Shown here piece after piece: positions 1 to 45,761 of a stretch of 47,309 nt of DNA. The stretch is taken from contig CAZPFR010000001.1 in the NCBI GenBank assembly GCA_964586005.1, positions 39,185-86,493 of the forward strand. The letters run 5' to 3'. The stretch is from an uncultured Candidatus Peribacteria bacterium. GTDB taxonomy: Bacteria; Patescibacteriota; Gracilibacteria; Absconditabacterales; Absconditicoccaceae. Each line of letters starts with the position of its first letter. The first letter of the stretch is position 1. The position numbers were made by a program, and so were the translations under genes. The notes under the pieces are model-generated. The model saw only the letters and a list, made by a program, of their open reading frames with translations. It was not told where the DNA came from and ran no database searches.

Positions 1-1046
1 TATTTTGATTTGTTATTTTTCTTTTCATTTTTTTTTGTTTTTTTTGAATTAATATGTTTATGAAATTTTTTTGTTAGTTTGTTTTTTGTTATAATTATTG
101 TGATAATTGCTATAACTACTAATAAAATTACTATTGATGCATATGTTTCTCGTCAAATAATTAGTATATTTGTTTGTTCTATTATTTCCCCATCTTTTAT
201 AGCATCATTTGTTTCTAATCAATTTCAAAGATTTGCTGAATGTATTACACTATATGTTATAGTAAAAGGTCCTTTATAAAAAGGTAAATCGTCTATTACG
301 TTATTGATATTTGATGCTTGTTTTGAAAATATAGTTCTTTTTTCTTCAAGAAATGTTTTTTTGTATCATAATCGATTTTTAATTTCTCATTTGATTGTTA
401 TTCATTGTTCTGCGGTTCCTTTATTTTGTAATATACTTTGTATGTATAATTTTTTTTCGTCTTTTTCAAAAAAACTTAGAATTTTTGAATTTTTTGAAAT
501 ACTTTTAATTTGAGAGGTAACATCTACAAATTCTAAACCGATGGAAACTACTCATTTGGCAAAAATATCTATGAAATTTGCTCTACGTACCATTACTTTG
601 AACATGTCTTTTTGGTTTTTTTCTCATTCTATGAAATAGGTTACACATCAACGTATTTCTCCAGCAGCTTCTTCAGGAAGTGTAATTGTTCCTGTAAGGG
701 TTGTACTTCATCTAGCTGGTACTGTTATTTTATTTGTTGGTATTGATACATATTTTCAAAAATTTTCATTTTCTCATTCATTTTTACACGCTTTTTTCTG
801 ATCAGCATCATTGGTTATCGTTCCATCGACAAAATTCATAGTAATAGAAACATCTTCGTTTCCTCAATTTATTAATACCATACAAATGTTTTGTTCTTGA
901 TTTCCACTTGTTGTAAGAGATATGGTTTTTTCTAATTTTTCTGGGTTATTACAGAATCTAAGTGCTACATCTCCAATACTTGCAGCATAAGTACTACTTA
1001 TACTTATTATTCAAAAAAGAAGTAACAACATTCCAAATTTTTTCAT
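1..1046 (-). CDS. secreted protein with signal peptide and C-terminal TM anchor (3' end runs off the window). The architecture resembles CscA/DUF916-type anchors of WxL surface clusters (inference).
   Basis: The code-25 reading from ATG 1046 stays open to the window edge (348 codons, many in-frame TGA, no TAA/TAG). The N-terminus MKKFGMLLLLFGIISISSTYAAS looks like a signal peptide. Near the C-end a hydrophobic helix ASIVILLVVIAIITIIIT is followed by the basic tail KNKLTKKFHKH. No enzyme motif recognised. Confidence 0.6.
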
Positions 1047-1106: not shown

Positions 1107-4100
1107 CTAATTTTCATAAAGAGTATATGTTAATGTTGCATGATATGCATCGATACTAATAAATGCAGGAATATCAAATCTTAATCGTGGTTTATTTCAG
1201 TATTTTCATGTTATTCCATAATTTGTTTGGTTATCTCTTTTGATATATGTGATAGGATTTCCTATTGGTTGATAATTTGTTAATGAAGAATTTATTGTAA
1301 CACGTCGATTTGAATCCCCAGAAAGAAGTGTTATTCAATCTCATTTTAAATAAATATTACTATTGTCTATATTTTCATAATCTCATGATAAATCAGAAAT
1401 AGAAATGGTTGTATAATATCAATTATCAGTTCATATAGGATCTTCTATCCAAAAATAATCGTTGAATTGTTGTTCTACAATTTGAAGATCACTTGTTGCT
1501 TCTATATTTGCGTTTATCATACTTGGTCATCAAATATTTAGTGGGTTTTTGCATATTCGATTTACACTAGCAATTGCTATTCCGGTATTAAATCCTTCAT
1601 CTCTAAATGTAAAAGTAAATGTTCCATTTTCTGTAAATGTGTAGGTATTTGATCATTGATTATTGGTGATTACTATTGGTTCTGAATATCCTGTTAATGT
1701 TGCTATAATATCTCCATTATAACAAGATCATGAATTATGACTATATTCTATATATGCAGTTGGCGGTGTATTATCTACAAATTCTGCATATAAATTGTAT
1801 ACCTGACTAGGAGTTAATGTTTTGTTATATATACGAACATCATCTAACATTCATTTATAAAAAGTATTTGCTTGATTTGCACTTCTTCTGGCAAGGGTAA
1901 TATTGTTTATTGGATTGTATCATCAGGCATCTATAGACGAATTACTTATTTTTTCTATTCCATCAATATATACTGTAGCTTTCTTTTTGCCAGGAATTTC
2001 TCAATTATCATCTATTGTTAATGTATATAAATGTCGTTCATTATTTGTTAGTGTTGTGTATGTTGAAGAATTCAGATTTAATATTGTTTGTTGTCCATTT
2101 ATAAATGTTTTGATCATTTTATCACTATTGTTTAATACTATGTTTATAGAATTTACTGCACCACTATCTCAGTGACTAAAAAGATACATATTGTTTCCTG
2201 TGCTATTTGTTTTTAATCGAAAAGATACACTTAGATCTGGTCCATATTCAAAATCTACAATACTAACTTCATCGTTTACTCCATCAAATTGGAAGGCTTT
2301 CCCATTTACTCCGGTTTGATTTCTTATTACTCATCATAATAAAATTCAATAATTATTGTTTAATGAACTATCAAATGTTGTACTTCCTGATGGTTCTTCA
2401 AACTCTAACCAAGATCGTGCTGCTGGTAACCAGGTTGTTTGTGTTGATTGAATCTCAGATATTTGACTTTCTCCAGCACTATTTATTGCTTGGATTTTGT
2501 AGTAATATCGAGTTTCTTTTTGTAGTCAAGTTATCGTTTCTTTTGTATCTGTTATTACTTTTCCACTGTATCAGCTAATTGTTGTAGAAAACGTATTTGT
2601 TGTTGAGACTCGTAACTTATAAATGGTAGCTCATGTTGTTGATTCTCGATTTATTCTAAATCAATCATTATCTAGATAATTTGCTGGTTTGAATATTGGT
2701 TTTTCTGGTTTTGTTAAAAAACCTGATTGTGTAGTATATTTTGTTCAGTAATTATTTATAGCAAAACCTTTAAAATAAATCCATGTTCATCAAGGTAGTC
2801 CTGTTAAATTTAAAGAAAAAGTACCCGTATTTGATCGGTTTCAATATTCGCTTACTTTTGTTCAAATTCCATCATTAAATCAGTTTGCTGTACTTCGATA
2901 AAATCATCTTTCTGTAATAGTACTATTTCCTATTGATAAAATATTTGCTGTTGCTAATGCTGTATTTTCTGTAATATTTGTCGTAATATTCCCTGTTATT
3001 ATTGGTACTTCATTGAGATTTACTGTTGTAAATTTCCATATTCAAGATCCAATAATTCCTGGAAAGCTATTTCCTGCTATATCTCTAAATGCACCGCTTT
3101 GAATTTCTATATAATATCAGGTAAAATTTTCGAATGCTGTTCAATGTAGTATTGTTGCTGTAGTATTATTGATTATTACTTTGTTACTGCCTGCATCAAT
3201 TGTCTCAAATATACTATTGTCATGTGTTTTTTTGATATATATAGAGAACCCAGTATAAGCTCTGATATTTTCATCAAAATTAATAATTAAATTATTGTAT
3301 AAACCTACATTTGTTTCATTGGTATAAGGGCTTGTCGATAATATTTGTGGTTTTTCATTATCGGCAGCGTATGTAAGTGTTAACATAGGTCTTTCTCCTA
3401 TAGTTCAATATTCTTTTGAACGAATACATAACCAATAATCATTACTATCTCACATTGCTATTCATTGGTTTGTATCAGGATTATCTAACCAATTTTGTAC
3501 CCGAGATAATCAATTGCTATTTAAACTAAATTCTTGTGTAATATTATTTCCTATTGCCCCAGAAAAACTAAGTGTATTGGTTATATTTGTTGTTCCATAA
3601 TCTATTCCGTTTACCATACCAATATTTCCATTGTGTCGATATTTTTCTTGTCGTTTTATCATTTTGTAATTTAACTCTCCAATACTTGCTGTACTATTTG
3701 ATTTTGTTCATTCAACCCATCATGGATTGTTTATAATAGGTCTTAATGAAAAAGACATTCCAGATGCTTGTGATGTGATATAATATCTAGATAACCTAAG
3801 TTTTGCTGAAGTGATTTTTGATCCCACTGGTATACTGGAAACATTAAACTTCATTAAAACTCTTGATCAAAAATCAGAAGCACATAAATATTGCATTGCT
3901 CAATAATTATTTTCTTGACAAATTCCATCTCCACATCCATTTGTAATATCGGTATCTGCGTCAATCATTGTATCATCACTTGGATATAATTGTAGTCCTA
4001 CATATGGATCCATAAAATTAATTTTAATTCAAGTTATCGTACTATTGATAATTTCATAATCTTGTGCATTAGTAAACGCTCAGTTTCAAAATCTGATTTC

Positions 4101-7100
4101 TATAGTATTGATATCATTATTATTTGCATGATTTATAGCAGTTCAAGATAATCCTACTATCAAGGTTTGAGTTCCACTGAGATAAAAATTTGTAGTAAGT
4201 CCAGCTGGAACTCATGACATTGTGATACTACCATTGGTTGGTGCATTATTATTGAAGGTATGTCATGTTAATTCAAAACTGATTGTGTTTTTAATTTGTC
4301 CGTTGTTCAATATATCATCTTCATCGAAAATCAAATTTGTTCCTGTTATTAATCATTTTTTTATCCAATCTACTTTTGCTATACTTTCGTATGTTATTCC
4401 TGTGATACTTTGTATTTTATATATAAATTCCCCATTACCACTAAATGTGTACTGATTTGATCAATTATTGTTTGTAATAACATAATTATTTCCGTATCAA
4501 GTAATTGTGGCTATAACATTATCAAATGTTTCGTTGTTTTGAGAATAATTGGTTGTTCGTACAGGATATACCGTTAATCCATTTGGATATGTTATGCTAC
4601 CTGTCCTTCAGTAAATATTTATATAATTTAATGTTACATTATATACTCAAGAGTTTAATTCTGGTATTATATTCGTTTTCCAAGTTCCATTTTGATAATT
4701 TGTTGTTGGATAATTTATTCCATTGATGATAACTTCTATGTTCATGTTTTTATCAGGGCTTGTTCATTCAAGAACAGGTGTTTTGGTGAATACTGTTTTT
4801 GGTGAAAAACTAGGTGCTTTCATGTATAAATTTTGAATTTCTTGATTGGTGAGTGTTTTGTTGTATATACGTACTTCATCAATTGATCCGGAAAAATAGT
4901 TTGTTGTAGTTCCTGCATATTTTCAAATAGTTTGATGTTGTGATGTTGTGTCTAATGTTACACTATTGGTACTTGTTCATCATTGGATTCCATTTACATA
5001 AATTGTTCTACTAGTTGCAGAATTAAAAATTCCTACTACATGATACCATTGTCATGCTTGTGCAGAAATTGTTCCATTTGCTGTTCTTGATACAGTATTT
5101 CTTGCTGTAATTTGAAATGTTGCATTATTTAAATTAATTCAAAAATATCTATTATTTGAGTTACTTCTTCCTTTAAACACAATTCATTGAGTTCATGTGA
5201 TTCTATCTGGTTTTACCCAAGCAGAAATAGTGAAAGGATATGTTGATACGATAGGTTGAGTGATATTAATATATTGATTTGTACCATTGAAACTCATTGT
5301 TGGAAGTCATGATAGAGTAGTGGTGTAAACATTATTTATACTATTTGCTAGATAATTATTTGATGAAATATCATAAAAATATGTTCCTGTGTATGATCCG
5401 TCTACATGTAATTGTAGCCCTAAAGATTCTTGTGTAGGAGTAGTATCTAAATAAATAGTATCTTGAATATATGCAAAACCTCAATTTCCACTAAATATTC
5501 CATAAACAGTTTTTTCTCAGTTAGCGCCAGTAAGTGTTCGAGGATAATTTGTATCATAGGTAACCCGATTGGCGCTATCTCTTTCACTTGGCGTGTTTCC
5601 AAACTTCATATGAGTTGCTCCAGTAATGTTTGTTTGTAATGTTACATTATTGCTTGTAGTACTTATTTCATCATTATTTATTACAAAATTTCCTGACCAT
5701 ATTCCTAATGAAAATATGGTAAAATGATTCGTTTGAAAAGAAGCAAAAACTCAATTTTCTTCAGATTGTGTTTTAATTGTATCAAAATATTTCCATTCAT
5801 TTCCATCTTGAGAATATTGAATAATGATATTTTTTTCCTTGTAATATTCTGGTAGAGTTATTTTGATAGTAGCATTTTTATCATTTCCTATATCATCTTG
5901 TAAAAATATTGGTTCTTCAGCTCCTGCTTTAAATGTAGTGATATGTTCAACTCATTGTTGTGATTCTTTGTTTTCTATAGGAAAAAAATCTATAATTCAG
6001 GTATATTCGCTGTTATCATTTGTTTTTATAATAGTATTTTCTGGAAAAATTATTTCTCCTATAAAATTACTTTCCTCTTTTGTTATAATTGTTGCTTGTG
6101 GAATTAGTCATTCAGTTCTTTCTAAATCGAATCATTTTTTTCCTATTAAAATTTTCTTATCTTTTTTAGTTTCTTCCAAAAAACCTAAATTACATAATTC
6201 TTCTTTGAATATTGTATTTTTATCTTTTTTATTGGTTTCTTGTTCTGTTTCTCATGATTTTATAGTATCGATCTTTTGATCTTCTTCTGCTTTCTGATTA
6301 CTTTTAGTAAATGTTATCCATACTTCATTGATTCTTTTTCTGGTTGATGGTCCCATGTATCATTGAACTTTTTTATTGTCTTCTTGTCATTTTAATATGC
6401 TTTCTTTGAGTTGAAATTGATAGATTGCTTCTATTGTTCTTTGATCATATGTGTTATTTATTTCTCAATTATACACTCAGTATCGATATAAAAATTTTTG
6501 TAAATCTCCTATAAGTTGATTTTGCTCGTCTTTTTGAAATGGATTAGAAAAATAAGAATCTGATTTTTTGTTTTCTATTTCTTCTTCTATTTCTATTTTT
6601 TCAATATTTGTATCTGTCTTTTTAACTTTAGTTTCTATAATCTGTTTGTTGGTATCTTCTTCTTTTGTTATACTTATTTCTTTATTTTCTATTTCTTGTA
6701 ATTTTTTATCCTCTTGATTTATATTATTTTCTTTTGTATCATCGAGAGTTTTATCTGTAACTGGTAGTCAATTTGAAGTAAAAGGGGAGTATTTTCTTAT
6801 TAAATATTTATTTATTTCTGTTATTTCATAATTTGATAATCATCTATCATAAATTAATATCTCTGCAATATATCATCCTAATGGTAAAATACCTAATTTT
6901 AATGTTCATTCTGATTCTATTGGTTTTTGGAGAATAGTTATTTCATTGTTGTTCATATGAACTATTGTTCATCAAGAATTTGTGCTAATACTTATAGCTT
7001 TGAATGAATTATTTCATCGATAACTAGGAATATTTACACCTCCTGAAGCAAAAAATATAAAATTATTCTGGTCAAATCATACAAATCGTTTTTCATTACT

Positions 7101-7940
7101 TCCTATTGCTGAAGCAAATCATCAAGGAGTTATTTCTTTGTTGTATACCAAAAATAATGTATACTCTTTTTGAAGTCTGATGTTTGTTTCTAATTCATCG
7201 TCTATGTTATCAAAGAAAATTGCTGGATAATTATTGATAATATTCTCAACGTATAGTGGTTGTTTATTTTCTTTCTTTGCAAAAGCTTTATGTGAAAATC
7301 AACGTCTATCTTTTCGTTCTTGTACATTATTTCATGATTGAATAATGCTATTTGATTTATTTGCATCAAACCATGCTTCTAAGTTTTCTACATCAATAGG
7401 ACTATCTATTTCTTTTATTTCTATTGTAATATCTCAAGTAATTTCTTGAACATCTCAAGTGATTTCTTGAACATCTCAAGTGATTTCTTGAACATCTCAG
7501 GTTATTTCTTGAACATCTCAAGTAATTTCTTGAATATCTCAGGTTATTTCTTGAACATCTCAAGTAATTTCTTGAACATCTCAGGTTATTTCTTGAATAT
7601 CTCAAGTAATTTCTTGAATATCTCAGGTTATTTCTTGAACATCTCACGTAATTTCTTGGATGTTTCAAGATAAATTATCGTTTTGTTCGTCGTTTATATT
7701 TTCATCTTTGTTAATTATTTCATTTGTGTAAGTTTGAATTATTTCATCTTCGGTTATTATCGTTTGATCTCCAGTTTGAGCAAACATCGAATTTACAACA
7801 TAATATAGCCAAAATCCCAATACAACAAGACAAATATGCATATAACTTAAAAGTATATGTTTATGTTTATTTGCCAAATGTCCACTTTTGTGAATTAGAC
7901 TTCTGGCATTATGAATTATAAAATGTCTTGTTTTTCTCAT
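1107..7940 (-). CDS. giant (2277 aa) membrane-anchored multidomain surface/adhesin-like protein
   Basis: ATG 7940 to TAG 1107-1109. Every in-phase triplet was checked by hand: no TAA/TAG, many TGA. The track ORF 3141-3386 is in the same phase. Motifs seen: TM HICLVVLGFWLYYVVNSMFA; 11x (V/I)QEITGD. Three LamG-type domain ends: GGYIAEILIYDRGLSNYEI, GSIDEVRIYNKTLTNQEIQNLY, GMLDDVRIYNKTLTPSQVYNLY. PG-binding-like LIGDLQKFLYRYGVYNGEINNTYDQRTIEAIYQFQ (~6330-6540). DNRLRE-like ...KITSAKLRLS...SKEYGTIGERPMLTLTY (~3370-3990). Ig-like Big_5-type ...AFRDIAGNSFPG..WKFTT (~3030-3360). FN3-like RYYYKIQAINSAGES (~2440-2700). C-terminal WxL-like domain (~1107-1480). Confidence 0.85.
7431..7661 (-). repeat. 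11 tandem 21-bp in-frame repeats inside the giant gene
   Basis: Plus-strand unit atctcaagtaatttcttgaac x11, with variants at 3-4 positions. On the coding strand this is GTTCAAGAAATTACTTGAGAT = heptad (V/I)QEITGD. The Gly of every heptad is a TGA codon. Confidence 0.95.
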
Positions 7941-8080: not shown

Positions 8081-8116
8081 AAAAATAAAAAAAGAAGATG
8101 CGTTAAGCATCTTCTT
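8081..8116 (-). terminator. rho-independent terminator after the small WxL-like gene
   Basis: The minus-strand RNA reads AAGAAGAUGC-UUAAC-GCAUCUUCUU followed by a U-rich run. This is a 10-bp perfect stem (plus 8092-8101 / 8107-8116). Confidence 0.7.
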
Positions 8117-8139: not shown

Positions 8140-8706
8140 TTAATTTTCGATAATTGTATATGTTACTGTTGCTTGGTATGAACCAACTGCTTGATAAGCA
8201 GGTATAGTTACTTGTAGCCAAGGAAATGCTGCATATTGTCCTAATTTTCCAGCATTTGGAGCACTATCCCTTTTAATAAATGTTATAGCATTATTAAGTG
8301 GTGTGTAATTTAATAGAGTATTACTTACTACAACATTTGCATTAGCACTTCCATTGATAACTGATGTATTTACAGTGTCTACTTTTGCAGCAATATTTGC
8401 AGCTGGTATTGTTCCATTAGCTCCAGAAAGATCAGTTACTTGAAGAGTTGTGTAATATCAATCGTCAGCTCCTTTCATATCTTGAACTCGGAAGTAATTT
8501 CCTGTACCGAATTTTTTTTCTTGTGTGACTTCTGTTGTAGAAACAGCAAGACTTCCAAAATCTAATGCACCTGTTTGTCCAATAGTTACTTGTCCTCAGA
8601 TGATTGTTAAATAAACATCTGTACTTACTTGAGCTTTTGTTGTTGCGCCAAATATTGCAGCCAATAGGAAAGCCCCTACCAATAACGTTTTTGTTCTTTT
8701 AAACAT
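8140..8706 (-). CDS. small secreted protein with WxL-like domain, paralogous to the C-terminus of the giant protein
   Basis: ATG 8706, TAA 8140-8142, 188 aa. Signal peptide MFKRTKTLLVGAFLLAAIFGATTKAQV. NYFRVQDMKGADDGYYTTLQVTDLSG ... ITFIKRD ... FPWLQVTIPAYQAVGSYQATVTYTIIEN is collinear with the giant's DYFWIEDPIGTDNGYYTTISISDLSG ... ITYIKRD ... LRFDIPAFISIDAYHATLTYTLYEN. Confidence 0.8.
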
Positions 8707-8741: not shown

Positions 8742-8769
8742 ATTATAAGTGGAATTTTTTATTTTGCAA
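8742..8769 (-). promoter_or_regulatory. candidate promoter of the WxL-like gene
   Basis: Minus strand TTGCAA-N16-TATAAT (plus ttgcaa 8764-8769, attata 8742-8747), about 35 nt upstream of ATG 8706. Confidence 0.4.
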
Positions 8770-8843
8770 ATTTTTGAATATTTTTTTCATTAGGGAAATG
8801 ATGAAGATTAATCTTTGGTCTACTATGATCTTTGTGAAAAATT

Positions 8844-10442: not shown

Positions 10443-11438
10443 TTAATATATACATATGTTTTCAATAGAAACTATTTTATTATTGTTTTTGTCTATCTTT
10501 GCACTTATTCCTTCTTGTTGGTTTATCCTTGGAAAATAATAATTTTGAGTTTCCTCAGTTTCTTCTATAATCGCTGGTAAATAATCTGATTGTATTGCAA
10601 AATTGTTTTTTTCAAAAAATATATTCAGATTTGGTAAATTTCATTCTATTTTATTTTCATTTTCTGCACTTGTATTGAGTATTGAAATTGAATTGTTTGT
10701 AAAATTTATTGTTACTTTGTATGTTTTGTTATTATAAATAAAAAATTTACTAGTGTTTTCTGTAATATTATTTATCACAAGGTATTCTTTGCTTGTTTTA
10801 CAGAATGTTTTTATTGTATCTTCTTTTATTGGTGGTTCAGATAAAAATTCTTTTGTTCTCATTTTATTGGTATTTGATCAATCTTGTTCTCTTTCCGGTA
10901 ATGCCATTATCATAACGTTACCTATTTCATTTGATGCTCATTCTCATCTTTCTATTATTGGTTCAGAATTTTTTATATTTGTATTTTCCTTTGTATATTT
11001 CGTTGATATTGTTTCTTTTTGTTCTATTTTATTTTCAGTTGATTGTTCTTTTACGGTTTCGTTTGTCTCTATTTCATTTGTTTTTATTTCATTATAAAAA
11101 GCTATTTGTTGAGTATTACTATTTTGATTGTTTTGGATATAATTAAAAATAATAAACATCAATATTCATGTAGTAATCGTAGAAAATCCAATTATCCAAT
11201 ATTTTATTCAATCAAATAATGGTCGTGTTTTTTTATTTTCTACCGTTGCTTTTTGTTTGTTAATTATTTGGATAATTTCCTTTTTAAGGACTATTTTGAA
11301 TTGATTTGTAAATGGTGTTTTTGGCTTATTTTCAATAAGTTCTTGAATTAAACTTTCAAGTTCTTTTTTTGTCATTTTTATACTAGGATCAATATTGGTA
11401 ATGTCGTTTATTATTTCTTGAATTATAGAATTTCCCAT
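10443..11438 (-). CDS. single-pass membrane protein downstream of the sigma factor (anti-sigma role proposed from position only)
   Basis: ATG 11438, TAA 10443-10445, 331 aa. It joins track ORFs 11208-11438, 10944-11162 and 10641-10862, all in one phase via TGA. TM IKYWIIGFSTITTGILMFIIFNYI. The extracytoplasmic part is N/E/K/T-rich. No HxxxCxxC zinc anti-sigma motif. Confidence 0.55.
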
Positions 11439-11460: not shown

Positions 11461-12030
11461 TTATTTTGTGTTGATCAAAAATAGTAATACTCCAATGTAG
11501 CCGAATTTTTGGATAATTGTTTGCAATGTTCTATGAAATGTTACTTTGCATGTGTTTGCAGATTTTCCTATGATCTGTGCTATTTCTTCATAAGACATTT
11601 CATTCCAAATTCTTAATAAAAATATTTCTTTTTTTTCTTTTCCTAATGTTTCTAAAAATTGTAGAATCTGATTTAATTTATCACGATCTTGAATTCCTTG
11701 TAAAATATCTATTTCTATACTTTGGTCTTGAAGTCGTGTATATTCTGGATAATCTATGTTATTTTGACGAAAATAATCAATAGTAGTGTTTCTTGCTATA
11801 CTATATAATCGTGAAGAAAATCAGAATTCTTTATTATGATCGAATAAATGAATTTTTTCGAATGCTTTGAGAAATGTATCGGAGGTAAGATCTTCAGTTT
11901 CTTGTTTTTTTCCAACTTTGAAAAAAATAAAGTCAAAAATCTTTTTAACATATTTTTCGTAAAGCGGTATAAAATTATCTGTCTTTCCTTCTTGGATAGC
12001 TTTCACTAGATCATTGTCTGAAATCTGCAT
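11461..12030 (-). CDS. ECF-type sigma-70 family RNA polymerase sigma factor
   Basis: 189 aa. Region 2-like FIPLYEKYVKKIFDFIFFKV..ETEDLTSDTFLKAFEKI ... RLYSIARNTTIDYFRQ. Region 4 HTH KEIFLLRIWNEMSYEEIAQIIGKSANTCKVTFHRTLQ. Confidence 0.85.
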
Positions 12031-15272: not shown

Positions 15273-16733
15273 ATGAACTTACAAGAACTTATTGCGACAT
15301 TAAATCCTCATCAACTTGCTTATATCAATATGGATCTCAAGGATCCTAAAAATGGGGATTATATGTTGAGTGTTTTTCATCTCATTCCTGGTGGGAAACT
15401 TAATATTTTGCAAGCGGCATGTGAAGTTGCTGCTGAATCTAGTACAGGGACAAATTTTTTGGTACAAACAGAAACTGCATACTCAAAAATGCTTAATGCA
15501 TTAGTATATCAAGTAGATTTGGAAAAAAATCTTGTACGGATTGCTTATCCATGGAGACTTTTTGATAGAAAAGGAAATGTTCAAAATATTTTGACGTATA
15601 TTGCAGGAAATGTCTTCTGAATGAAAGAAATTCAAGCCTTGAAACTTTTGGATGTTTGGTTTCCTCCTGCTATGCTTGAACAATATGATGGACCTAGTTA
15701 TACTTTGGATGATATGAGAAAATATCTCAATGTGTATGATAGACCAATTCTTGGAACTATTGTGAAACCAAAAATGGGACTTACTTCTGCTGAATATGCT
15801 GAAGTGGCTTATGATTTTCGGGTAGGATGAGGTGATTTTGTGAAAAATGATGAACCGCAGGCAGATCAAGATTTCTGTCCTTATGATAAAATGGTAGCTC
15901 ATATCAAAGAAGCTATGGATAAAGCAGTTAAAGAAACTGGTCAGAAAAAGGTACATTCATTTAATGTCTCAGCAGCAGACTATGATACGATGATTGCAAG
16001 ATGTGAGATGGTAGTAAATTCTGGTATGGAAAAAGGTAGCTATGCTTTCCTTATCGACTGAACTACAGCTGGATGGATGGCAGTACAAACACTTAGAAGA
16101 AAATATCCAGATGTGTTTATTCATTTTCATAGAGCAGGACATGGTGCTTTTACTAGACCAGAAAATCCTATTTGATATACTGTTTTAGTTTTATCTAAAT
16201 TTGCTAGACTTGCTGGAGCATCTGGAATTCATACCGGAACTGCTGGAGTTGGTAAAATGGCAGGAACTCCCGAAGAAGATGTTACAGCAGCACATAATAT
16301 TTTTTGACTTGATGCTCCAGGGCATATTTTCCAACAATCACGAGGAACTATTCCAGAAAACGATGAAGATCGATTAAATAAAGTCCAAGAAGATCATCAT
16401 CAACATCTAGTTAATGAAGATGATACTTGGAGAAATCTCAAAAAATGTTGTCCAATTATTTCTGGATGACTCAATCCAACTCTTTTGAAACCATTTATTG
16501 ATGTGATGTGAAATGTAGATTTCATTACAACTATGGGTGCTGGTTGTCATGCTCATCCTAGAGGAACAAAAATTGGAGCGACAGCATTAGTACAAGCATG
16601 TGAAGCATATAAAAAATGAATAGATATTGTAGAGTATGCAAAAGATCATATTGAACTTGCTGAAGCTATTGAATTTTTTACTAAGAAAGAAAATAAAGAT
16701 TTGAGGCATGCTGAGAGAAGAGAATCTAATTAA
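15273..16733 (+). CDS. rbcL: ribulose-1,5-bisphosphate carboxylase/oxygenase large subunit, form II-like / form II/III type
   Basis: 486 aa. It joins track ORFs 15189-15620, 15621-15830 and 15840-16061 in one phase. Catalytic motifs are present: GNVFG(TGA)[15 protein letters not shown](TGA)[27 protein letters not shown](TGA)[18 protein letters not shown](TGA)[13 protein letters not shown]. About 30 extra residues ([33 protein letters not shown], ~16347-16446) lie before the SGG motif. Confidence 0.93.
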
Positions 16734-25014: not shown

Positions 25015-25087
25015 GCTCTTGTAGTTCAACGGGATAGAACAACTCTCTCCTAAGGAGTAAATACAGGTTCGAGTCCTGTCAGGGGTA
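25015..25087 (+). tRNA. tRNA-Arg (anticodon CCU)
   Basis: 73-nt cloverleaf folded by hand. Acceptor GCTCTTG/CAGGGGT (3 G-U pairs), D arm GTTC-AACGGGATA-GAAC, anticodon arm ACTCT-CT[CCT]AA-GGAGT, variable AAAT, T arm ACAGG-TTCGAGT-CCTGT, discriminator A. CCA is not encoded. Confidence 0.8.
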
Positions 25088-31453: not shown

Positions 31454-33670
31454 TTATTTTGTGTTTTCTGATGTAAATTTTTGGTATATTATGAATTCTT
31501 CTGGGCTTATTTCTTTTATTGTTTTTAGAGGATCTGATACAAAATTATCAATTTTTATTTTGTTTTCATCGTTTAATGTCAGACTTAAATTCTTTATAAG
31601 AAGGGGTATATTGTTTGAATCTATTTTTTTAAAATAAATTGGTTCTATTTTATGGTCTTCTATATTATAATATCCAATAAAGGAAATTCATTGTATAATA
31701 AAATCAATTAGTACTTTATTGTTTTTTTCTACGATATCTGATACAGTGATTCAAAGAAACTGTTTAACTCTTTCTATAATAATAATACTATTTATAGATC
31801 ATTCTGAATTATTTGATGTTTCTGGAACGTAGGTTAATAGTCATTGAATGATGCTTTTTATAAAGAGAGCAAATTTTTCTTTACTTTGATCAGTGTTTGA
31901 TGTTTGTATTATATTATTTATTATTTTTCTTGCCTCTTCATCTGATACATCTATCTTATTTAAAATAAAATTGTTGTGTAAAAAAGTGATTGTTATAATA
32001 TTATTTTTCCAAAGAACGTCGATATCTATGTTTGTTTTATTACAAGTTTTTAACTCTTGTCTTGGTAAAAGAATTTTAATTGTGGTACATAACTTATTTA
32101 TTTCTTCTTCTTGTATTTCTTGTCCTACTTCTCAGAATAATGTTTTATTTTGTTCTATATATTTTTGTAAATCACTAAAAGATCGTTTCTGAGATGTACA
32201 CAATTTATTTATTGATTCAGTTATTTCAGTAAATCAAATTAATACTATATTTTTTACATATAATGTATTTTTTTCTTCTTCTAAAGTTATTTCTAAAGGA
32301 ATTTTTGTTTCTAGATTCCAATCTCATTCTATTTTTATTGTGTTTCATGAAATTATTTTTTTATTTATGCTTATTATGTTGATTTGTTGGAGTAAATTCT
32401 CAATCAAATTGATTTGATTTTCGTTATTTTGTTCTGTATTGTTTTCTCCTGTGTTAGTAATAATAAAATCATTTTGTAAAATATTTTTGTTTATTTGATC
32501 TTTTAATCAATTATATCCTATTAATTTGTTTCAATTATTTATGTTTATGATTTGCTTTTCTATTTCATTGAGTTCAAATTTATTAGTTATGTTTTTGATT
32601 ATTTCTGTCTTTTGTAGGTTTTCTTTGATATAATAATTATTAAAATAATATATTACTTCCTTATAAAAATTTCAGATTTGATTTCTTTTTAATATTTCTT
32701 GTATAAAACTAAAATATCAGTTTAAACTATCTATATTTAATCTATTATTTTTTATATCTTCGTATATTATTTGTTGAAATGATATTAATTTATAGATATT
32801 TATTTTTTCATTTTTATATATTTTATTACTTATAAATTTGTTGTATAGCTCATTTTGTACATCAATAAAATTTGTAAAAGTAATATAACTGTCTTTGTAT
32901 TCTGATCAACAATTTTCTAAAAAATTTTGAATTGTGATATTTTGACTGTTGGTGTAATATGTATAGTATAATAAATTCTGACACATTTTTTCTTTATGTT
33001 TTTTTTGTTTTATAATATTATTAAATATTGGTTCTATATTTATATTATCTTGTTCTATATTATAAATAAAAAATTCTTTTATAAATTTCTCTGTGAATAT
33101 ATCACAAATTGAATTTGTTATTTTTTTCTCGAATAGACATTGTAAATTAAATTCTTCTATAAGATTTTTATTGATTGGAAATAAGGTATTTAATTTTGTT
33201 TCCTTGGAAATTCATTTACTTCATAAAATGATATTTTTAAAAAATATTGCCATTTCTTCTTTTGTATATGTTCATTTTTGAAAATACGGTAAAGGTTGAA
33301 TAGGTGCTGTCTTCGTTATGCTAAAAAATCTTGGTACAATAAATCATTTATACGTTACTAAATTGTTGTAAGAACTAATAATTTCATTTTCTTCTTGTAT
33401 ATCATCTGTTATTATTTCTCCCGAAAAAAAATATAAGGTATTTTTTTTATTTATTTTTTTAAAAAATTCTTGTATTGTTTTTTGTTTAATTGTATCTAAG
33501 CTGTTTATGTCATATATTAAATTTGCTTGTTTATTTAATATATTGTATATTTTGAATATTACAAAAACTCCTATTATGATAAAAATCCCATAGGTAAATA
33601 GTATTTTATATATTTTTCAATACTTTTTCAGTATTTCTTGAGTCTTTTCTTGTAATTGTTGTTTGTTCAT
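31454..33670 (-). CDS. large orphan protein (738 aa) with an N-terminal TM anchor
   Basis: ATG 33670, TAA 31454-31456. Every in-phase triplet was checked: no TAA/TAG. TM ILFTYGIFIIIGVFVIFKIY. The rest is N/I/K/E-rich with no motif I recognise. Confidence 0.75.
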
Positions 33671-36847: not shown

Positions 36848-38377
36848 ATGGATGAAAATCAATTGTTAGTAGATCAGCCACTTTGAGAAAAATTAATTAA
36901 AAAATGATTTTGGTTATATTTTTTCTCGTTTTTGATTGCTCCGGCATCATATTTTATAAAGGTTATTATTTCTAATTCCGTATCTGTTGCTGATGTCGGA
37001 GTATTGTATAGCATTGTTAGTTTGATAATGTTTTTGAATGTTTATAATGATTTATGATTGACTGAAAGTCTTCAATATTTTTTGCCAAGATATTGGATGA
37101 AAAAACAATATAATTATATCAAAACTTCTATTTATTTGAGTTTATTTGTTCAAATTTTTACGGCTTTGCTTATAGCAATTTTTTTGTGGTTTGGTGCTCC
37201 ATGGTTAGCAGAGCATTATTTTCATAGTGATAGTGTAGTGATAATTCTTAAATATTTTTGTTTTTATTTTTTGGGAATAAATCTTTTTCAGATTTTGCAA
37301 AGTATTTTTGTAGCTTTTCAGAGTACTTTTTCATTTCAATTTGTAGAATTTGTTAGGGTCTGGAGCATTGTTTGATTTTCTGTTTTATTTTTTTTTACTG
37401 GTAGACAAAGTATTGAACGATATAGTATTAATTGGGTATTATGATTGATTATATGAATATGTGTTGCAAGTTTTCTGTTTTATAAAAATTATAGAAAAAC
37501 TTTGTTACAAGGAAATCTTGTTTTTGAAAAACCTATGCTCAAAGAATATGTTAATTATTCACTTTGGTGTTTTGTAGGACTTAATACTGCTAATATTTTC
37601 TGACAAATTATTCAACAATTAATTATTGTTATTTTAGGGCCAGAATCAGCAGGATATTATAGTAATTTTATTAGTTTGTTTAGTATATCTGCTGCTATTA
37701 TTTCGCCTATTATGACTTTGATTTTTCCTTTGATTTCAGAATTGGTAATCAAAAAGGATATCATAAAACAAAAATCTTTATACTCATTTTTTTATACCTA
37801 TTTTGGAATTTTTGCTTTTTTATTGGCAAGTTTTTTTGTCGTAACTTGACCTGAAACGGCACTAATTCTTTTTGGTTATAAATTTGTTTTTTCTGGGCAA
37901 CTTTTTTCTTGGTGAATTATTGTTAGTATATTTACAACTTTTGTTAGTTTTAATTTTGCTGTTTTAGCTGGTATGTGAAAAATCAAGGAAAGAGTTAAGA
38001 TGTTACTTATTTCTGCTTGTGTAGTTATTGTTGTTTCTTTAATATGACTAACTACAATCTGAATTTATTGATCAATTTTGGCTTTATGATTGTGATATTG
38101 ATTATTGTTTTTATTGAGTTTTTTATTTCTTTATAAACATCTTCCTTTTTCTATTGATTGGAAATTTATAATAAAAAATATTATAGTAACATCTATATTG
38201 TCAATTGGAGTATGGTTGATAAAATCAGAATTATTTATATTTGATGATATCATGAGATGATCCAATTTATTAAAGTTAATTGGTATTTGATTAATTTTCT
38301 TTTTTGTTTTTATTGGAATTAATTGGAAAAGAGCTATGTTATTGAAAGATGAATTAATAAAAATGAGATCTAATTAG
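36848..38377 (+). CDS. wzx: oligosaccharide/polysaccharide flippase (Wzx-like, MOP superfamily)
   Basis: 509 aa, all in-phase codons checked. About 12-14 hydrophobic helices throughout. It includes track ORF 37058-37375. TAG at 38375-38377. Confidence 0.7.
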
Positions 38378-38445
38378 ATTGATATTGTTAATTAAATTAT
38401 TATTGTTTTTTGAAAAATATTTAAATTCTGATCATATGTCTATTT

Positions 38446-39381
38446 ATGAAAAAAATTCTTGTAACGTGAGGTGCTTGATTTATCTGAAGTCATTTGTGTA
38501 AAAAACTTTTGGAACAAGGTCATGAAGTTATTTGTTTAGATAATCTTTTTACGTGAAATAAAAGTAATATTGAGAACTTATTAGATAATCATAGATTTAC
38601 TTTTGTTCTTCATGATGTAACTCAACCTTTTTGGGCTCAAGTAGATGAAATTTATAATCTTGCGTGTCCGGCGTCACCTATTCATTATCAAAAAAATCCT
38701 GTAGAAACAATCAAAACATCCCTTTTGTGATCAATAAATATGTTGGAATTGTCATTGAAAGTAAAAGCTAAAATTTTGCAAACCTCTACTTCTGAAGTAT
38801 ATTGAGATCCTATGGTTCATCCACAACCAGAATCTTATTGGTGAAATGTAAATATTGTATGATGTAGATCGTGTTATGATGAAGGTAAAAGAGCTGCGGA
38901 AACATTATTTATGGATTATCATAGACAATATGGTGTAGATGTGAGAATAATTAGAATATTTAATACGTATGGTCCAAATATGCATCCTGCTGATGGTCGT
39001 GTTGTAAGTAATTTTATTATGCAGGCATTGAAAAATCAAGATATAACTATATATTGAGATGGTAGTCAAACGAGATCTTTTCAGTATGTCGATGATTTGA
39101 TTGACGGTATGATAACAATGATGAATAACGAAATTTGATTTATTTGACCCGTGAATATTGGTACAGAGTATGAATTTACTATCAAAGAATTAGCTGAAAA
39201 AGTTATTGAAATTATTTCGTGATGTACGAGTAAAATTGTTTATCAACAGCTTCCTAGTGATGATCCTAAACATAGGAGGACTGATAATAATTTGGCTAAA
39301 GAGAAATTATGATGGAATCCGATTATTGGTTTGGATGAAGGATTGGAAAGAACGGTAAAATATTTTAGAAAGTTTGTTTAG
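38446..39381 (+). CDS. uxs: UDP-glucuronate decarboxylase (UDP-xylose synthase, SDR family)
   Basis: 311 aa: MKKILVTG GAG FIG SHL (three of the Rossmann glycines are TGA), [104 protein letters not shown]. Confidence 0.9.
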
Positions 39382-39405
39382 TTTTTAAATTTTATATATT
39401 TTCAT

Positions 39406-40176
39406 ATGCAAGTAGTATTGTTAGCATGATGACTTTGAACTCGTTTATCTGAAGAAACTGTTGTTAGGCCAAAGCCTATGGTTGAGATTTGATGAAAACC
39501 TATTATTTGGCATATCATGAAATGATATGCACATCAATGATTTAATGAATTTATCATCTGTTTGTGATACAAGTGATATATGATAAAAGAATGGTTTTCT
39601 AATTATTATTTACATAATAGTGATATTACTATAGAAACGAAAACTAATACATTAACGGTACATAATAATAATTGTGATGATCGAAAAGTTACTTTGATAG
39701 ATACATGAGAAAATACTATGACAGGATGAAGAATCAAAAGAGTAGAAAATTATATAAATTGAGATGTATTCATGCTTACTTATGGTGATGGTGTAAGTGA
39801 TGTTAATGTAAAAGATGTTTTTGATTTTCATTGTAATCATTGAAAATTAGCTACACTTATTTCTGTTCAACCGGAAAATAGATTTGGAAAACTTGTTATA
39901 GAATGAGATAAAATAATGGAATTTTGAGAAAAGAAAGATAATGTAGGTCAGAATATTAATTGATGATTTATGGTCCTTAATAAAAAAGTGATTAATTATA
40001 TTGATTGAGATTTTATGCCATTTGAAAAAGAACCATTAGAAAATCTTGCTAAAGATTGAGAACTTATGGCATATAAGCATAATTGATTTTGGTTTGCAAT
40101 GGATACAATAAAACATAAACAAGATCTTGAGCAATTGCGAAATTCGTGAAAAGCCCCATGGAAAAAACGATCTTAA
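39406..40176 (+). CDS. rfbF: glucose-1-phosphate cytidylyltransferase
   Basis: 256 aa: [41 protein letters not shown]...FIICLGYKGYMIKEWF...TLIDTGENTMTGGRIKRV...TYGDGVSDVN...INGGFMVL...HNGFWFAMDTIKHKQDLEQLRNSGKAPWK. Confidence 0.92.
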
Positions 40177-40195
40177 TTTAGTAATTTTTTCTTTT

Positions 40196-41152
40196 ATGAA
40201 AAATATTTTGCTAACTTGAAGTACATGATTTATTTGAAGTCATTTATTAATAGCTTTAATTGGTGAATGATTTGATGTTTTTTCTATAATTAGAAAATGA
40301 TCTGATATTTCTAGAATTACCAGATATTTATGAAATCCTAAATTACATATTATATATATAAATAAAAATGAAGATATTGAAAAACTTTTTTTGAAAAATA
40401 AAATAAATTTTATTATACATTTAGCAACAACTTACAGAAAAACACATAATAAACCAGATATAGATGAGATGATAAAAACCAATATTGCTTTTTGAACTTA
40501 TTTATGTGATCTAGCTGTTAAAAATTGAGTTAATTATTTTATAAATACGTGAACTTTTTTTGAATATGCTCATTATAAAAATAAAGACAATATTATAACA
40601 GAAAAGACAACAGAAAGAGCGTATAATTTATATGCATCAACAAAATTAGCTTTTAATAATATAGTTAAATATTATACAGAAAATTATAATTTTAAATCTA
40701 TTACTTTGAGATTGTTTTCTCCTTATTGACCTAAAGATAATGATAAAATTATACCTCTTATAATAAAGAATACTATAGATGATAGTAATATTTTACGTCT
40801 TTCTTGAGGAAAGCAAAAATTAAGTTTTACTTATATAGATGATATAATTTCTGCTTATTTATTGTCTTTAAAATATATAGTCAAAACGAATAAAAAATTT
40901 GATATTTTTAATATATGATCTTCTGAAACTTTATCATTAAAAATGGTATATAAATATATAATTGAAATAGCTAAGAAATCTGGAAAAAATATTGAATTTT
41001 GAGCATTACCATATTCTGAAAATGATATTTTTTATTCTTGATGTGATAATACAAAGGCAAGAAATAAATTATGATGGACTACTAAATATTCAATAAAAGA
41101 ATGATTGTTTTTTACTTATAAAAGTTATTTGAATGAAATTTATAAAAACTAA
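40196..41152 (+). CDS. NAD(P)-dependent SDR epimerase/reductase; candidate CDP-3,6-dideoxyhexulose 4-reductase (RfbS/AscF-like, function inferred from context)
   Basis: 318 aa: MKNILLTG(TGA)STG(TGA)FIG(TGA)SHLL, YxxxK as YASTK. It sits between rfbF and the cupin epimerase. Confidence 0.65.
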
Positions 41153-41678
41153 TTTAAATACTGTTTTTGAAGTTTTTTTTGATGTGTTTTCAGATGAAAG
41201 ATGATCTTTTATAAAAACATTTCATAATGAGGATTTTTATAAAATTTGATTAAAAGATTCTTTTAAAGAGAGTTTTTATTCTATATCAAAGAAAAATGTT
41301 ATAAGATGAATGCATTTTCAAAATCCTCCTTATGATCATGATAAATTTGTCTATCCTATACAATGAAGTGTTCTTGATGTTGTTCTTGATCTTAGAAGAA
41401 ATAGTATAACATATTGAAAATATGTTTCCGTGAATTTATCAAAAGAAAAAAATAATTGAATATTTATTCCTAGATGATTTGCTCATTGATTTTTAACACT
41501 TAGTGATGATGCAATTCTTGTTTATATGGATACAACAATTTTTAATAAAGAAAGTGACTCATGAATACATTGGAATTCTTTTTGAATGGATTGGTCTGTT
41601 GAAAATCCCATTATTTCAGAAAAAGATAGAAATTTATCTTCTTTGTTAGATTTTGATACTCCTTTTATTTTAGAATAA
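41133..41678 (+). CDS. RmlC-type cupin sugar-nucleotide 3,5-(or 5-)epimerase (RfbC/AscE-like)
   Basis: 181 aa: FSDERG(TGA)SFIKTF...IRG(TGA)MHFQNPPYDHDKFVYPIQG(TGA)SVLDVVLDLRRNSITYG(TGA)KY...IFIPRG(TGA)FAHG(TGA)F. The start overlaps the preceding gene by 20 nt. Confidence 0.8.
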
Positions 41679-41684
41679 AGAATC

Positions 41685-42728
41685 ATGCAAGAATTTTATA
41701 AATGAAAAACTATATTATTAACTTGATCAACAGGTTTTAAATGAAGTTGGTTGGCTTTATGGTTACATAGTATGTGAGCAAAGGTAATAGGATATGGATT
41801 AATACCCAATACTGAGCCCAATCTATTTACTGCATTAGAATTGAATCAGAAAATAATTCAAATAATCTGAGATATAAATGATACTGAATTATTATCAAAA
41901 ACTATTGATGAATATCAACCTGAGATGATCTTTCATCTTGCAGCACAACCATTGGTAAGAGATAGTTATGAAAATCCTATGTATACTATCAAAACTAATG
42001 CTATGTGAACAACTGTTGTTTTGGAAATGATCAGAATAAAAGAATACATAAAATGAGCGGTATTGATAACAACTGATAAAGTATATGAAAACAAAGAATG
42101 GATTTGGCCTTATAGAGAAAATGATAGATTATGATGACATGATCCCTATAGTAGTAGTAAAGCTATGGCAGAAATAGCAATAACATCGTATACAAAATCA
42201 TTTCTCCATGAATGAAATAAAAAAATAGCAGTAGTTAGAGCATGAAATGTAATAGGATGATGAGATTGGTCAAAAGATAGATTGATACCAGATATTGTAA
42301 GATCTATTATGCAATGAGAAAAGTTAATACTTAGAAATCCTAATGCAGTTAGACCTTGGCAATATGTTCTTGAGGCACTATTTTGATATCTAAATATAGG
42401 AATAAAAATATTTGAAGGTGATAAATATTTATGAGCATATAATTTTTGACCAGATATTAGTGATACACTTAAAGTCATAGATATTGTTACCAAATCTATT
42501 GAAATTTTGGGAAAATGAACATATGAGGTTAACTTAGAAATGAATAACTGAATGCATGAAGCTGGTTTGTTGCTACTTGATAATACAAAAGCTAAACTTC
42601 TTTTATGATGGAAGCCAAAATATAATGTTCAAGAAGTTCTTGAAAGAACAATTAATTTTTATAGGGCATTTTATAATCAAGAAGATATTAAAAAATTAGC
42701 ATTGAATGAGATAAATCAATTTATGTAA
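41685..42728 (+). CDS. rfbG: CDP-glucose 4,6-dehydratase
   Basis: 347 aa: KTILLTGSTGFKGSWLALWLHSMGAKVIGYGL...IFHLAAQPLVRDSYENP..TIKTNAMGT...ITTDKVYENKEWIWPYRENDRLGGHDPYSSSKAMAE...VRAGNVIGGGDWSKDRLIPD...RPWQYVLE. Confidence 0.92.
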
Positions 42729-42753
42729 TATTTTATTTTTATAAAGGTTTATT

Positions 42754-44058: not shown

Positions 44059-44908
44059 GCCATTAATAAGTATATTAGTACCTACCTATAATAGATTAAA
44101 TTATCTAAAAGAGTGTTTAGATAGTATTGTTTCTCAAAAATGATTTTTGAAATCCGATTTAGAATTAATTGTTTCTGATAATTCTGATAATGATGAAACC
44201 AAAAAATTTATGAACCAATATATTAAAGAAAATAATAATTGGGGTATTTATTATAATAAAAACAATAAAAATCTATGAATGGTTTGAAATTGGAATAAAT
44301 TACTAGAATTAAAAAAATGAGAATATTTTATCTTTTTATCTGATGATGATAAATTTTATGATGAAAATAGTTTAAAAATATTATATGATAATTTGATTAA
44401 ATATAATTTGGATGTTTGTTATTGAAGGTATATGTGTATAAATGAATTATCTATATATAGTCAGTTTAAACCCCATAATAAAGTTAATAATAAGGATATT
44501 TATTATGATATTTTTCAAGAACAGATTATTTGACATACAATCTCATTTTGATGAATTTTATATAAAAGTATATGAAAAGTGTATGATGAAAATTTTTGAA
44601 ACTATGCTGATTGGGATTTTAATCTTAATTATTTATATAATTGAAAAAAAATATGATTGATTAATAAATATACTTTTTTATATAAAATTCATACCAATCA
44701 AAATATTAATTCAATTAATGTTTTTTTGGACTATAAATTGTATATATTATGAATGAAAAAATATAAATATAATAAAATAACAAAAAATATATTAATGAAA
44801 ATAATAAAAGTATATCCTATTATGATTATTTTAGATGTAATCAAAAAAATATGATTATACTCTTTTTTTAAAAAAATTGAATATAAAATATGTCAAAAAT
44901 CAGTATAA
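44045..44908 (+). CDS. family 2 glycosyltransferase
   Basis: 287 aa, all codons checked: KPLISILVPTYNRLNYLKECLDSIVSQ...ELIVSDNSDNDET...FIFLSDDDKF. The start overlaps rfbH by 14 nt. Confidence 0.85.
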
Positions 44909-45750: not shown

Positions 45751-45761
45751 ATCTTATTTTA

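Follow-up and report, generated by a model that had tools for sequence, protein, structure and literature searches.

Here we report a cluster of three adjacent genes in a 47,309-nucleotide stretch of DNA (the window, i.e., the whole stretch that was analysed; contig CAZPFR010000001.1 of assembly GCA_964586005.1, positions 39,185 to 86,493) from an uncultured bacterium labelled Candidatus Peribacteria and placed by GTDB in the Absconditabacterales. The central gene encodes a protein of 2277 amino acids, called the giant here, and it lies between two smaller genes, orf2 and orf0, on one (minus) strand. We consider it probable that the giant serves as the "large WxL" (CscC/Lwp-type) component in a cell-surface complex of divergent WxL type, encoded by orf2, the giant gene, and orf0. 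The features of the cluster are the following.

8742..8770, minus strand: promoter-like site upstream of orf2, 10/12 matches, from a consensus scan alone; such sites are not enriched in this AT-rich region.
8140..8706, minus strand: orf2, 188 amino acids, just upstream of the giant gene, with a signal peptide and one acidic all-beta domain; candidate CscB (small WxL) equivalent.
8092..8116, minus strand: terminator-like hairpin between orf2 and the giant gene, 10-base-pair stem and T-run, from a consensus scan alone.
1107..7940, minus strand: giant gene, 2277 sense codons and a TAG stop, 97 TGA read as glycine; proposed large WxL (CscC/Lwp-like) subunit.
1110..1550, minus strand: C-terminal WxL-like domain of the giant, residues 2131-2277, ending in LTYTLYEN; supported through orf2.
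1..1046, minus strand: orf0, at least 348 amino acids, just downstream of the giant gene and running off the window edge; candidate CscA equivalent.

The giant gene starts with the ATG at 7940-7938 and stops with the TAG at 1109-1107, and among its 2277 sense codons there is no TAA and no TAG other than the terminal one, while TGA occurs 97 times in frame. An earlier inspection of the letters alone (the sequence-only reading) had described a single 2277-residue open reading frame (ORF) at 1107-7940 free of in-frame TAA and TAG, without stating the strand, and this description stands. At the base composition of the window (26% G+C), the probability that 2277 codons stay free of TAA and TAG by chance is ~1e-73. 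The standard code breaks the frame; its largest in-frame pieces are then 91 amino acids at the N-terminus and 81 amino acids at codons 1519-1599, so that the 81-residue fragment to which the sequence-only reading had reduced the standard-code track exists, but not alone. With TGA as a stop, the longest ORF of the whole window has 160 amino acids, and with TGA as a sense codon, 43 ordinary-sized genes fill the window.

TGA encodes glycine (translation table 25) in the giant gene and in the window, as is directly observed in several alignments. Glycine in PDB 8vgs stands opposite seven of the eight TGA sites of the window's RuBisCO, glycine stands opposite four of the six TGA sites of its NDK, and the TGA positions of orf2 are glycine in the NCBI orthologues. 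In three close orthologues of the giant, TGA or GGN stands opposite 79-84 of its 97 TGA codons, and in a more divergent orthologue (L008) opposite 45 of them; TGG is found at these sites in none of the four. Table 4 (TGA as tryptophan) was rejected, since it would give ~5% tryptophan, the RuBisCO and NDK sites align to glycine, and the orthologue interchange is with GGN, never TGG. A tRNA-Gly(UCA) was not found in the window, where the sole RNA gene detected is a tRNA-Arg(CCT) (25015-25087, plus strand).

The complete genome of SR1 bacterium RAAC1_SR1_1 (CP006913.1) contains a full-length, collinear counterpart of the giant gene, 2323 amino acids long and 66% identical, with the RuBisCO, ECF sigma factor, and NDK genes nearby as in the window, and other full-length orthologues (2276-2880 amino acids) are present in further Absconditabacteria assemblies. 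Because of this collinearity and these further orthologues, the giant gene is real and not a chimera, and the possibility of an interrupted or chimeric frame, which the sequence-only reading had named as a way for its proposal to fail, finds no support. The orthologues are conserved domain by domain, with 51-85% identity in the folded modules against 23-39% in repeats and linkers. Orthologues of the giant are already in GenBank, annotated as "hypothetical protein" or "Ig-like domain-containing protein". Public collections store genes of the cluster's families (database proteins P0001, P0024, P0026, and several others) with TGA translated as tryptophan, e.g., TILWGNV for TILGGNV; this mistranslation places a spurious tryptophan at ~4% of the giant's positions and weakens profile searches. 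One orthologue, P0025 (2834 amino acids; locus L005, 10621-19263), has an internal duplication of ~560 amino acids spanning LamG, Big_13-like, and following modules, i.e., the adhesin grows by module duplication.

The connection of the giant with WxL proteins comes through orf2. The last 122 residues of the giant are 41% identical to the orf2 domain (over 126 amino acids, E = 1e-29), and orf2 in turn matches the Pfam WxL model (PF13731) nearly from end to end (profile positions 45-209 of 214) with 23 bits, the cutoff being 25. The same model is matched by 13 of 22 members of the orf2 family and by 12 of a further 63 that are more divergent (best E = 1.6e-8), which makes 25 of 85 in the combined family at E<=0.01, and no other family recurs; one member has a precomputed PF13731 match. 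In the second sequence motif of the family, the leucine and the small polar "x" of Trp-x-Leu are retained. The WxL-like C-terminus that the sequence-only reading had proposed is borne out, indirectly, by this connection. The acidic character of orf2 (isoelectric point 4.6) agrees with what is reported for small WxL proteins (PMC9772566). The AlphaFold2 (AF2) model of the small subunit, made from an NCBI orthologue of orf2 in correct translation, is all-beta, with a predicted local distance difference test score (pLDDT) of 75.6, and its best PDB matches are FimA-type pilins at a probability of 0.98-0.99, with TM-scores of just 0.32-0.45 and a large root-mean-square deviation. The likeness to donor-strand-completed pilins is, as weak evidence from a model, compatible with the predicted insertion of a strand by a WxLIP.

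A profile search of 1.84 billion representative proteins returned 575 clusters of this family, 283 of them at E<=1e-10. Among the best 150 of the 575 clusters there are stand-alone forms of ~190 amino acids (180-210) and large proteins of up to 1848 amino acids, and in every one of these large proteins the domain match reaches the C-terminal residue or stops only a few residues short of it. This two-form family, small and stand-alone or large with the domain at the C-terminus, is the small/large WxL dichotomy. The large members that we sampled carry LamG, Big_5, DUF285, or cadherin-like/Big_9 passengers before the same C-terminal domain. Since one and the same module stands behind unrelated passengers, the C-terminal domain seemingly behaves as a general anchoring or docking module for interchangeable binding domains.

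orf0, which a simple ORF listing missed, is laid out as a signal peptide, a long beta-rich ectodomain of two beta blocks, a C-terminal transmembrane helix, and a Lys-rich tail. It matches the PF06030 model (WxLIP_PGBD) with 25.3 bits against a cutoff of 27.3, and three of eight orf0 orthologues also match this model. An AF2 model of its SR1 orthologue, of low confidence (pLDDT 58), consists of a signal helix, two beta blocks (22-155 and 166-295), and a further helix (299-331). WxLIP proteins have been described as a signal peptide, a PGBD of ~148 amino acids, an HBD of ~112 amino acids, and a transmembrane helix, at a length of 337-365 amino acids (PMC10599100); the modelled layout equals this plan, and orf0 is in the WxLIP size class. 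When the model was compared with 350,542 PDB chains by Foldseek, the top three were the Enterococcus faecium WxLIP chains 9i25_C ("bound to long WxL") and 9i1y_A/B (E = 2e-9, probability 1.0), a ranking that supports the WxLIP assignment of orf0, short of proof. Four cysteines of orf0 (C32, C55, C87, and C134) do not vary among eight WxLIP-like orthologues that share 22-67% identity, and they may pair as two disulfides within the first beta domain; we did not find this four-cysteine feature mentioned for Firmicutes WxLIPs (PMC1534035, PMC9772566, PMC10599100).

The neighbourhood of orf2, the giant gene, and orf0 was followed in a locus scan with one genome per species, which yielded 17 loci with a small WxL-like gene, almost all TGA-recoded. 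The triad of small WxL-like, large WxL-like, and WxLIP-like genes recurs in at least 10 TGA-recoded loci and in several gene orders. The arrangements mapped are small, giant, WxLIP at five loci, and elsewhere large (972 amino acids), small, WxLIP; large (883 amino acids), WxLIP, small; WxLIP, small; or large, WxLIP. Such kept membership with shuffled order is the signature of a functional unit. A WxL cluster has been defined as at least one WxLIP and at least two WxL genes within four genes (Hassan, Chaudhuri & Williamson 2023, PMC10599100), and the orf2/giant/orf0 cluster falls within this definition, with component assignments that themselves have near-threshold scores. In some metagenome-assembled genomes, two or more small WxL-like genes are found at separate loci (L013 and L015; L014 and L016), and some small WxL-like loci have no large WxL or WxLIP gene within 10 kb. 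Two of the loci, L003 (CP060225.1, labelled Candidatus Peribacteria, 1.0 Mb) and L010 (on a contig binned as Cryomorphaceae), have long ORFs only if TGA is a sense codon, and the stored gene calls of L003 are short and leave a gap of ~5 kb. The taxonomic label or bin of both, and their annotation code, look wrong; L003, being TGA-recoded with broken gene calls, was dropped as a standard-code control.

The domain content of the giant in front of the C-terminal domain was annotated by Pfam and NCBIfam profile searches on the table-25 translation. From the N-terminus onward it reads as follows.

7776..7940, minus strand: residues 1-55, basic n-region, hydrophobic segment at 28-50, then SMFA/QT (from hydropathy).
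7431..7658, minus strand: tandem repeat, 21 base pairs x 10.9 copies, 89-94% matches, encoding EITGD[VI]Q with one in-frame TGA-Gly codon per unit.
6747..7409, minus strand: D1, residues 178-398, probable divergent LamG/ConA-like jellyroll by transitive homology.
6306..6518, minus strand: PG_binding_1-type domain, residues 475-545, between low-complexity acidic linkers.
5361..6140, minus strand: conserved stretch without family, residues 601-860, 60-76% identity, recurring in other large WxL-like proteins, e.g., at L009.
4833..5288, minus strand: Laminin_G_3 (LamG2), residues 885-1036, among the most conserved modules (73-83% identity).
4005..4784, minus strand: probable Ig-like modules, residues 1053-1312, with weak Big_13/Ca_tandemer matches at 1053-1114.
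3372..3911, minus strand: DNRLRE domain (NF033679), residues 1344-1523.
3024..3362, minus strand: Big_5 bacterial Ig-like domain, residues 1527-1639, E = 3.6e-11.
2433..3023, minus strand: residues 1640-1836, a stretch without family and then an FN3 domain (1746-1836; fn3 match and PDB matches).
1800..2243, minus strand: Laminin_G_3 (LamG3), residues ~1900-2047, the most conserved module (81-85% identity).

LamG2 (E = 1.6e-34, 119.6 bits) and LamG3 (E = 3.5e-13, 50.4 bits) are both well above the Laminin_G_3 cutoff of 27.6 bits. D1 has no direct Pfam LamG match, and an hhalign comparison with the two clear LamG domains of the giant gives a probability of just 4.5%. With the profile of the D1 orthologues, five proteins were retrieved from the database (E 4e-8 to 9e-4); in the part aligned with D1, four of the five match Laminin_G_3 (PF13385) with scores close to or above the Pfam cutoff, and the remaining one matches it weakly, and the alignment holds an invariant C-terminus, IAEILIY...L...YL..KY; because its profile relatives carry Laminin_G_3 over the aligned region, D1 is assigned, by transitive homology, as a divergent LamG domain. 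The three LamG domains listed by the sequence-only reading are therefore retained, two directly and the first through its relatives. Its other calls also held to different degrees. PG_binding_1 (PF01471) reaches 30.5 bits at residues 475-512, above the cutoff of 23, in a partial match (profile positions 3-40 of 57), and this stretch has a weak match, far below cutoff, to a spore cortex-lytic enzyme SleB family model. The DNRLRE domain scores 57 bits against a cutoff of 34 over profile positions 12-164 of 164, and the Big_5 match has the E-value given above. The FN3 call is weak: the fn3 model (PF00041) matches residues 1772-1830 with 23.3 bits, below the cutoff of 25, and nearly all of the 22 PDB sequence matches of this region are FN3 domains. 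Pfam and NCBIfam scans of residues 601-860 and 1041-1315 gave nothing usable, and these profile searches detected no catalytic domain (glycoside hydrolase or lyase) across the 2277 amino acids.

The N-terminus of the giant may act as a signal peptide that has an extended n-region and is cleaved off, or as a signal/transmembrane anchor. Orthologues keep the equivalent SMYAQE after the hydrophobic segment. The N-terminal transmembrane segment of the sequence-only reading is present as the hydrophobic segment at 28-50 and, given the conserved Ala-Gln that follows, may be a cleaved signal peptide. The heptad array of the same reading is also present as a repeat, but it is a fast-evolving 21-base-pair tandem repeat and is not conserved: the stretch is only 23-29% identical to the orthologues, which carry different, irregular repeats at the same place. 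The Pfam matches within it (LPP, CsbD, and DUF948) are low-complexity repeat matches. We read the array as a variable acidic stalk or spacer that evolves fast through repeat turnover, and not as a conserved coiled coil.

To our knowledge, descriptions of the WxL system have so far been confined almost entirely to lactic-acid bacteria and related groups. A large WxL protein (CscC/Lwp) is defined by a C-terminal WxL domain behind variable binding domains, in a cluster with small WxL and WxLIP genes, and ConA-like lectin is the clearest recognised passenger domain of CscC proteins (PMC1534035; for the definition also PMC9772566, PMC10599100). The giant with its flanking genes fits this published definition, and the architecture that the sequence-only reading could not match to any named family does have a described counterpart. 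Like E. faecium LwpA-C, E. faecalis ElrA, and Lactobacillus plantarum CscC, the giant ends in a WxL-type domain of ~130-150 amino acids, carries variable N-terminal passengers that are mostly beta-sandwich binding modules including ConA-like lectin, and is encoded beside small WxL and transmembrane-anchored WxLIP genes, all three with export signals. It differs from them in length (2277 versus 500-1000 amino acids), in having Tyr/Phe-Thr-Leu for Trp-x-Leu, in scores below the Pfam threshold, in the lack of an LPxTG (CscD) gene, and in its additional PG_binding_1, DNRLRE, and tandem-repeat stalk; its host is a TGA-recoded candidate-phylum bacterium, whereas the hosts of large WxL proteins are Lactobacillales and Bacillales. 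orf0 resembles the WxLIPs (DUF916-DUF3324-transmembrane helix; CscA; PDB 9i1y and 9i25 from E. faecium) in length class, signal peptide, two beta domains, a single C-terminal transmembrane helix with a basic tail, the near-threshold PF06030 match, and the top structural matches of its orthologue's model. It is unlike them in having neither NQIDKxxxYFDLK nor a DUF3324 sequence match and in its four invariant cysteines, and the model used for comparison is of low confidence with low TM-scores. orf2 resembles small WxL proteins (CscB/Swp) in its signal peptide and single acidic all-beta domain of ~163 amino acids, its place beside a large WxL gene, and the several copies in some metagenome-assembled genomes, but is shorter than a typical CscB (~240 amino acids) and has degenerate Trp-x-Leu motifs.

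Giant secreted proteins rich in repeats and in lectin and Ig domains are known from the reduced genomes of Absconditabacteria, Gracilibacteria, and other episymbiotic or predatory ultrasmall bacteria and are generally read as host-attachment factors. The protein described here is like them in being very large, secreted, and repeat- and lectin/Ig-rich in a reduced genome; unlike our reading of it, the reports of those giants, as far as we searched, draw no link to WxL/WxLIP anchoring, and our literature search found no paper that joins WxL with the candidate phyla radiation, Absconditabacteria, or Gracilibacteria. The new element is a large, probable "YxL" branch with degenerate motifs, which occurs in TGA-recoded bacteria of candidate phyla and has passengers two to four times as long as the known large WxL proteins.

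Several observations weigh against placing the trio in the WxL system. None of the three proteins of the window reaches the Pfam gathering threshold for WxL or WxLIP, and the C-terminal 228 amino acids of the giant alone give no Pfam match. The defining Trp-x-Leu is not conserved in the family: motif 1 is G[YW]YTT, with tryptophan in 8 of 63 members, and motif 2 is [LI]T[YF]T[LI], with tryptophan in 0 of 63. NQIDKxxxYFDLK is absent from orf0, which also has no sequence match to WxLIP_HBD (DUF3324, PF11797). Profile searches against the PDB with the WxL-like and the WxLIP-like families did not reach the solved long-WxL or WxLIP chains and returned nothing beyond generic beta-strand matches (GH123, EndoS). 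In the structural comparisons, the TM-scores of the low-confidence orf0-orthologue model to WxLIP are low (0.23-0.33) with generic tandem-Ig proteins (e.g., RbmA and transglutaminase) following closely, and the top 50 matches of the small-subunit model do not include the 9i25 WxL chain; a structural difference between the small and the large WxL form has been reported (PMC9772566). An LPxTG (CscD) partner was not found, there being no LPxTG with an anchor-like tail in the window ORFs or in any related locus; a small LPxTG-anchored CscD is usual in a Csc cluster, and not obligatory (Siezen 2006). The giant is two to four times the length of the described large WxL proteins (500-1000 amino acids), and its expression, surface location, and binding are predictions. 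Taking both sides together, we think that the trio works like the WxL system and is, with fair probability, a remote branch of it, and not a proven member.

The giant is, in our reading, a secreted multi-lectin surface protein of a TGA-recoded SR1-type bacterium, for which an adhesin role is the most reasonable inference. Briefly, the three proteins would be exported, as their signal sequences suggest, and, by analogy with the known system, the WxLIP-like protein, held in the membrane by its C-terminal helix, would combine with the small WxL-like protein into a platform at the cell's own wall, on which the giant would dock via its C-terminal WxL-like domain. For Firmicutes, the docking is predicted to consist in a WxLIP beta-strand that completes the WxL sandwich, and the peptidoglycan to which the WxL domain and its partners fasten the protein is that of the producer itself (PMC1534035, PMC9772566, PMC10599100). 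About 2100 residues, a ~250-kDa array of three LamG domains, DNRLRE, Ig-like modules, FN3, PG_binding_1, and the repeat stalk, would then project outward and may bind glycans on another surface, most plausibly that of a host or prey cell. Absconditabacteria are tiny and probably depend on such a cell. The gene, its code, its domains, the C-terminal domain common to the giant and orf2, the recurring triad, and the two-form family are observed, whereas every binding event in this scheme, and the ligand, is one that we infer. The sequence-only reading had the giant gripping the envelope of another cell and spoke of predatory SR1 relatives; predation is here an extrapolation from relatives in culture. 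An adhesin role is indeed reasonable, but wall-binding elements need not do the gripping, as the known WxL domain holds the producer's own wall; by analogy, the LamG, DNRLRE, and Ig modules are likelier outward-facing binders than the wall-binding elements. PG_binding_1, in the N-proximal third, may bind the own wall or the target wall, both being compatible with the sequence. Because no catalytic domain was found, we consider it likelier that the giant adheres to glycans on the surface of a host or prey cell than that it serves to degrade polysaccharides.

A wider proposal, which we put forward as doubtful speculation, is that a "YxL" branch of WxL/WxLIP proteins (the 575 clusters), either ancient or gained by horizontal transfer, serves Absconditabacteria and Gracilibacteria as a general platform for interchangeable giant adhesins; the lectin array would be a host-recognition organelle that sets to which bacterium these episymbionts or predators attach, and the small subunit may in addition polymerise by donor-strand exchange, giving a short fibre tipped by the giant.

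Other explanations of the giant have to be considered beside the WxL reading. The giant may act as an adhesin on its own, with an N-terminal transmembrane anchor in the producer membrane, PG_binding_1 and lectins that grip the prey envelope, and neighbours that are irrelevant. The hydrophobic segment at 28-50 and the abundance of lectin-type modules agree with this, and PG_binding_1 in the N-proximal third would be distal and free for another cell if the C-terminus is the anchored end. We nevertheless consider it unlikely: the signal-peptidase-like Ala-Gln after the N-terminal segment is conserved in all orthologues, the C-terminal domain is common with the adjoining small secreted protein and stands in docking-like fashion behind unrelated passengers elsewhere, and the triad with a transmembrane-anchored partner in at least 10 loci would go unexplained. 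If, instead, the complex binds environmental or host-derived polysaccharides at the cell surface for nutrients and is no cell-cell adhesin, as Siezen et al. proposed for Csc clusters from their ConA-like domains and catabolite control (PMC1534035), the carbohydrate-binding-type folds of three LamG domains and DNRLRE would find a use. The giant has no detected glycoside hydrolase or lyase domain, however, no sugar transporter or catabolic genes adjoin the cluster (the neighbours are NDK, the sigma factor, and a conserved transmembrane protein without family), and the later literature favours adhesion (PMC9772566, PMC10599100), so that we hold glycan harvesting to be unlikely.

A pilus-like fibre is very improbable in our judgement. 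Small subunits would polymerise by donor-strand exchange through an invariant N-terminal strand (..TDVYLTI.GG..), with the giant, which lacks that strand, as tip adhesin and the WxLIP-like protein as membrane base. It could account for the pilin matches of the small-subunit model, for a near-invariant N-terminal segment (T29, V31, L33, G38) that is the least confident part of the monomer model, and for the alignment of the giant's domain just from ~position 35 onward; the putative hairpin after orf2 could, through partial read-through, set the high small-to-large subunit ratio that a fibre would use. The low TM-scores and large deviations of those pilin matches speak against it, polymerisation is not known for Firmicutes WxL proteins, usher, chaperone, and sortase genes were not found nearby, and the whole idea is drawn from one model. 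Finally, an assembly chimera or pseudogene that is open merely because TGA is ignored is next to impossible: apart from the invisibility of the ORF under the standard code nothing favours it, and the ~1e-73 chance of such a frame, the TGA/GGN interchange at the same codons in orthologues, the full-length collinear genes in independent assemblies including a complete genome, and the domain-wise conservation (51-85% in folded modules, 23-39% in linkers) contradict it. The large WxL reading is the one that we retain.

Elsewhere in the window, a form II/III-type RuBisCO (15273-16733, plus strand) is close to PDB 8vgs and 5mac (E = 1e-256) and syntenic with SR1 RAAC1. An ECF-type sigma factor (11461-12030, minus strand) is followed by a 331-residue single-transmembrane protein without family match (10443-11438), a pair that is conserved upstream of the cluster in SR1 RAAC1; the 331-residue protein is possibly an anti-sigma factor, and the pair could regulate surface genes. 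A surface-polysaccharide biosynthesis cluster (36848-46733, plus strand) comprises a Wzx-type flippase, three epimerase/dehydratase paralogues, a nucleotidyl transferase, a DegT aminotransferase, and three GT2 glycosyltransferases, and its genes are unusually TGA-Gly-rich, with up to 28 in 434 codons. The second longest gene of the window, a 738-residue ORF (31454-33670, minus strand), has an N-terminal transmembrane segment and no Pfam match at E<=1e-4.

The wider question is by what means ultrasmall bacteria of candidate phyla select their hosts and attach to them; most of their giant surface proteins carry the annotation "hypothetical". In public collections, the genes described here are either mistranslated (TGA as tryptophan) or cut to pieces by gene calling with code 11, and the family is thereby hidden; the family profile (575 clusters) could find the surface-displayed adhesin repertoire of any TGA-recoded genome. 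The link to a three-component anchoring system gives such a giant concrete parts that can be tested: the domain by which it docks, its partner in the membrane, and the small subunit. If the trio is indeed a branch of the WxL system, the range of WxL systems would extend well beyond Lactobacillales and Bacillales, and the eponymous Trp-x-Leu would be dispensable.

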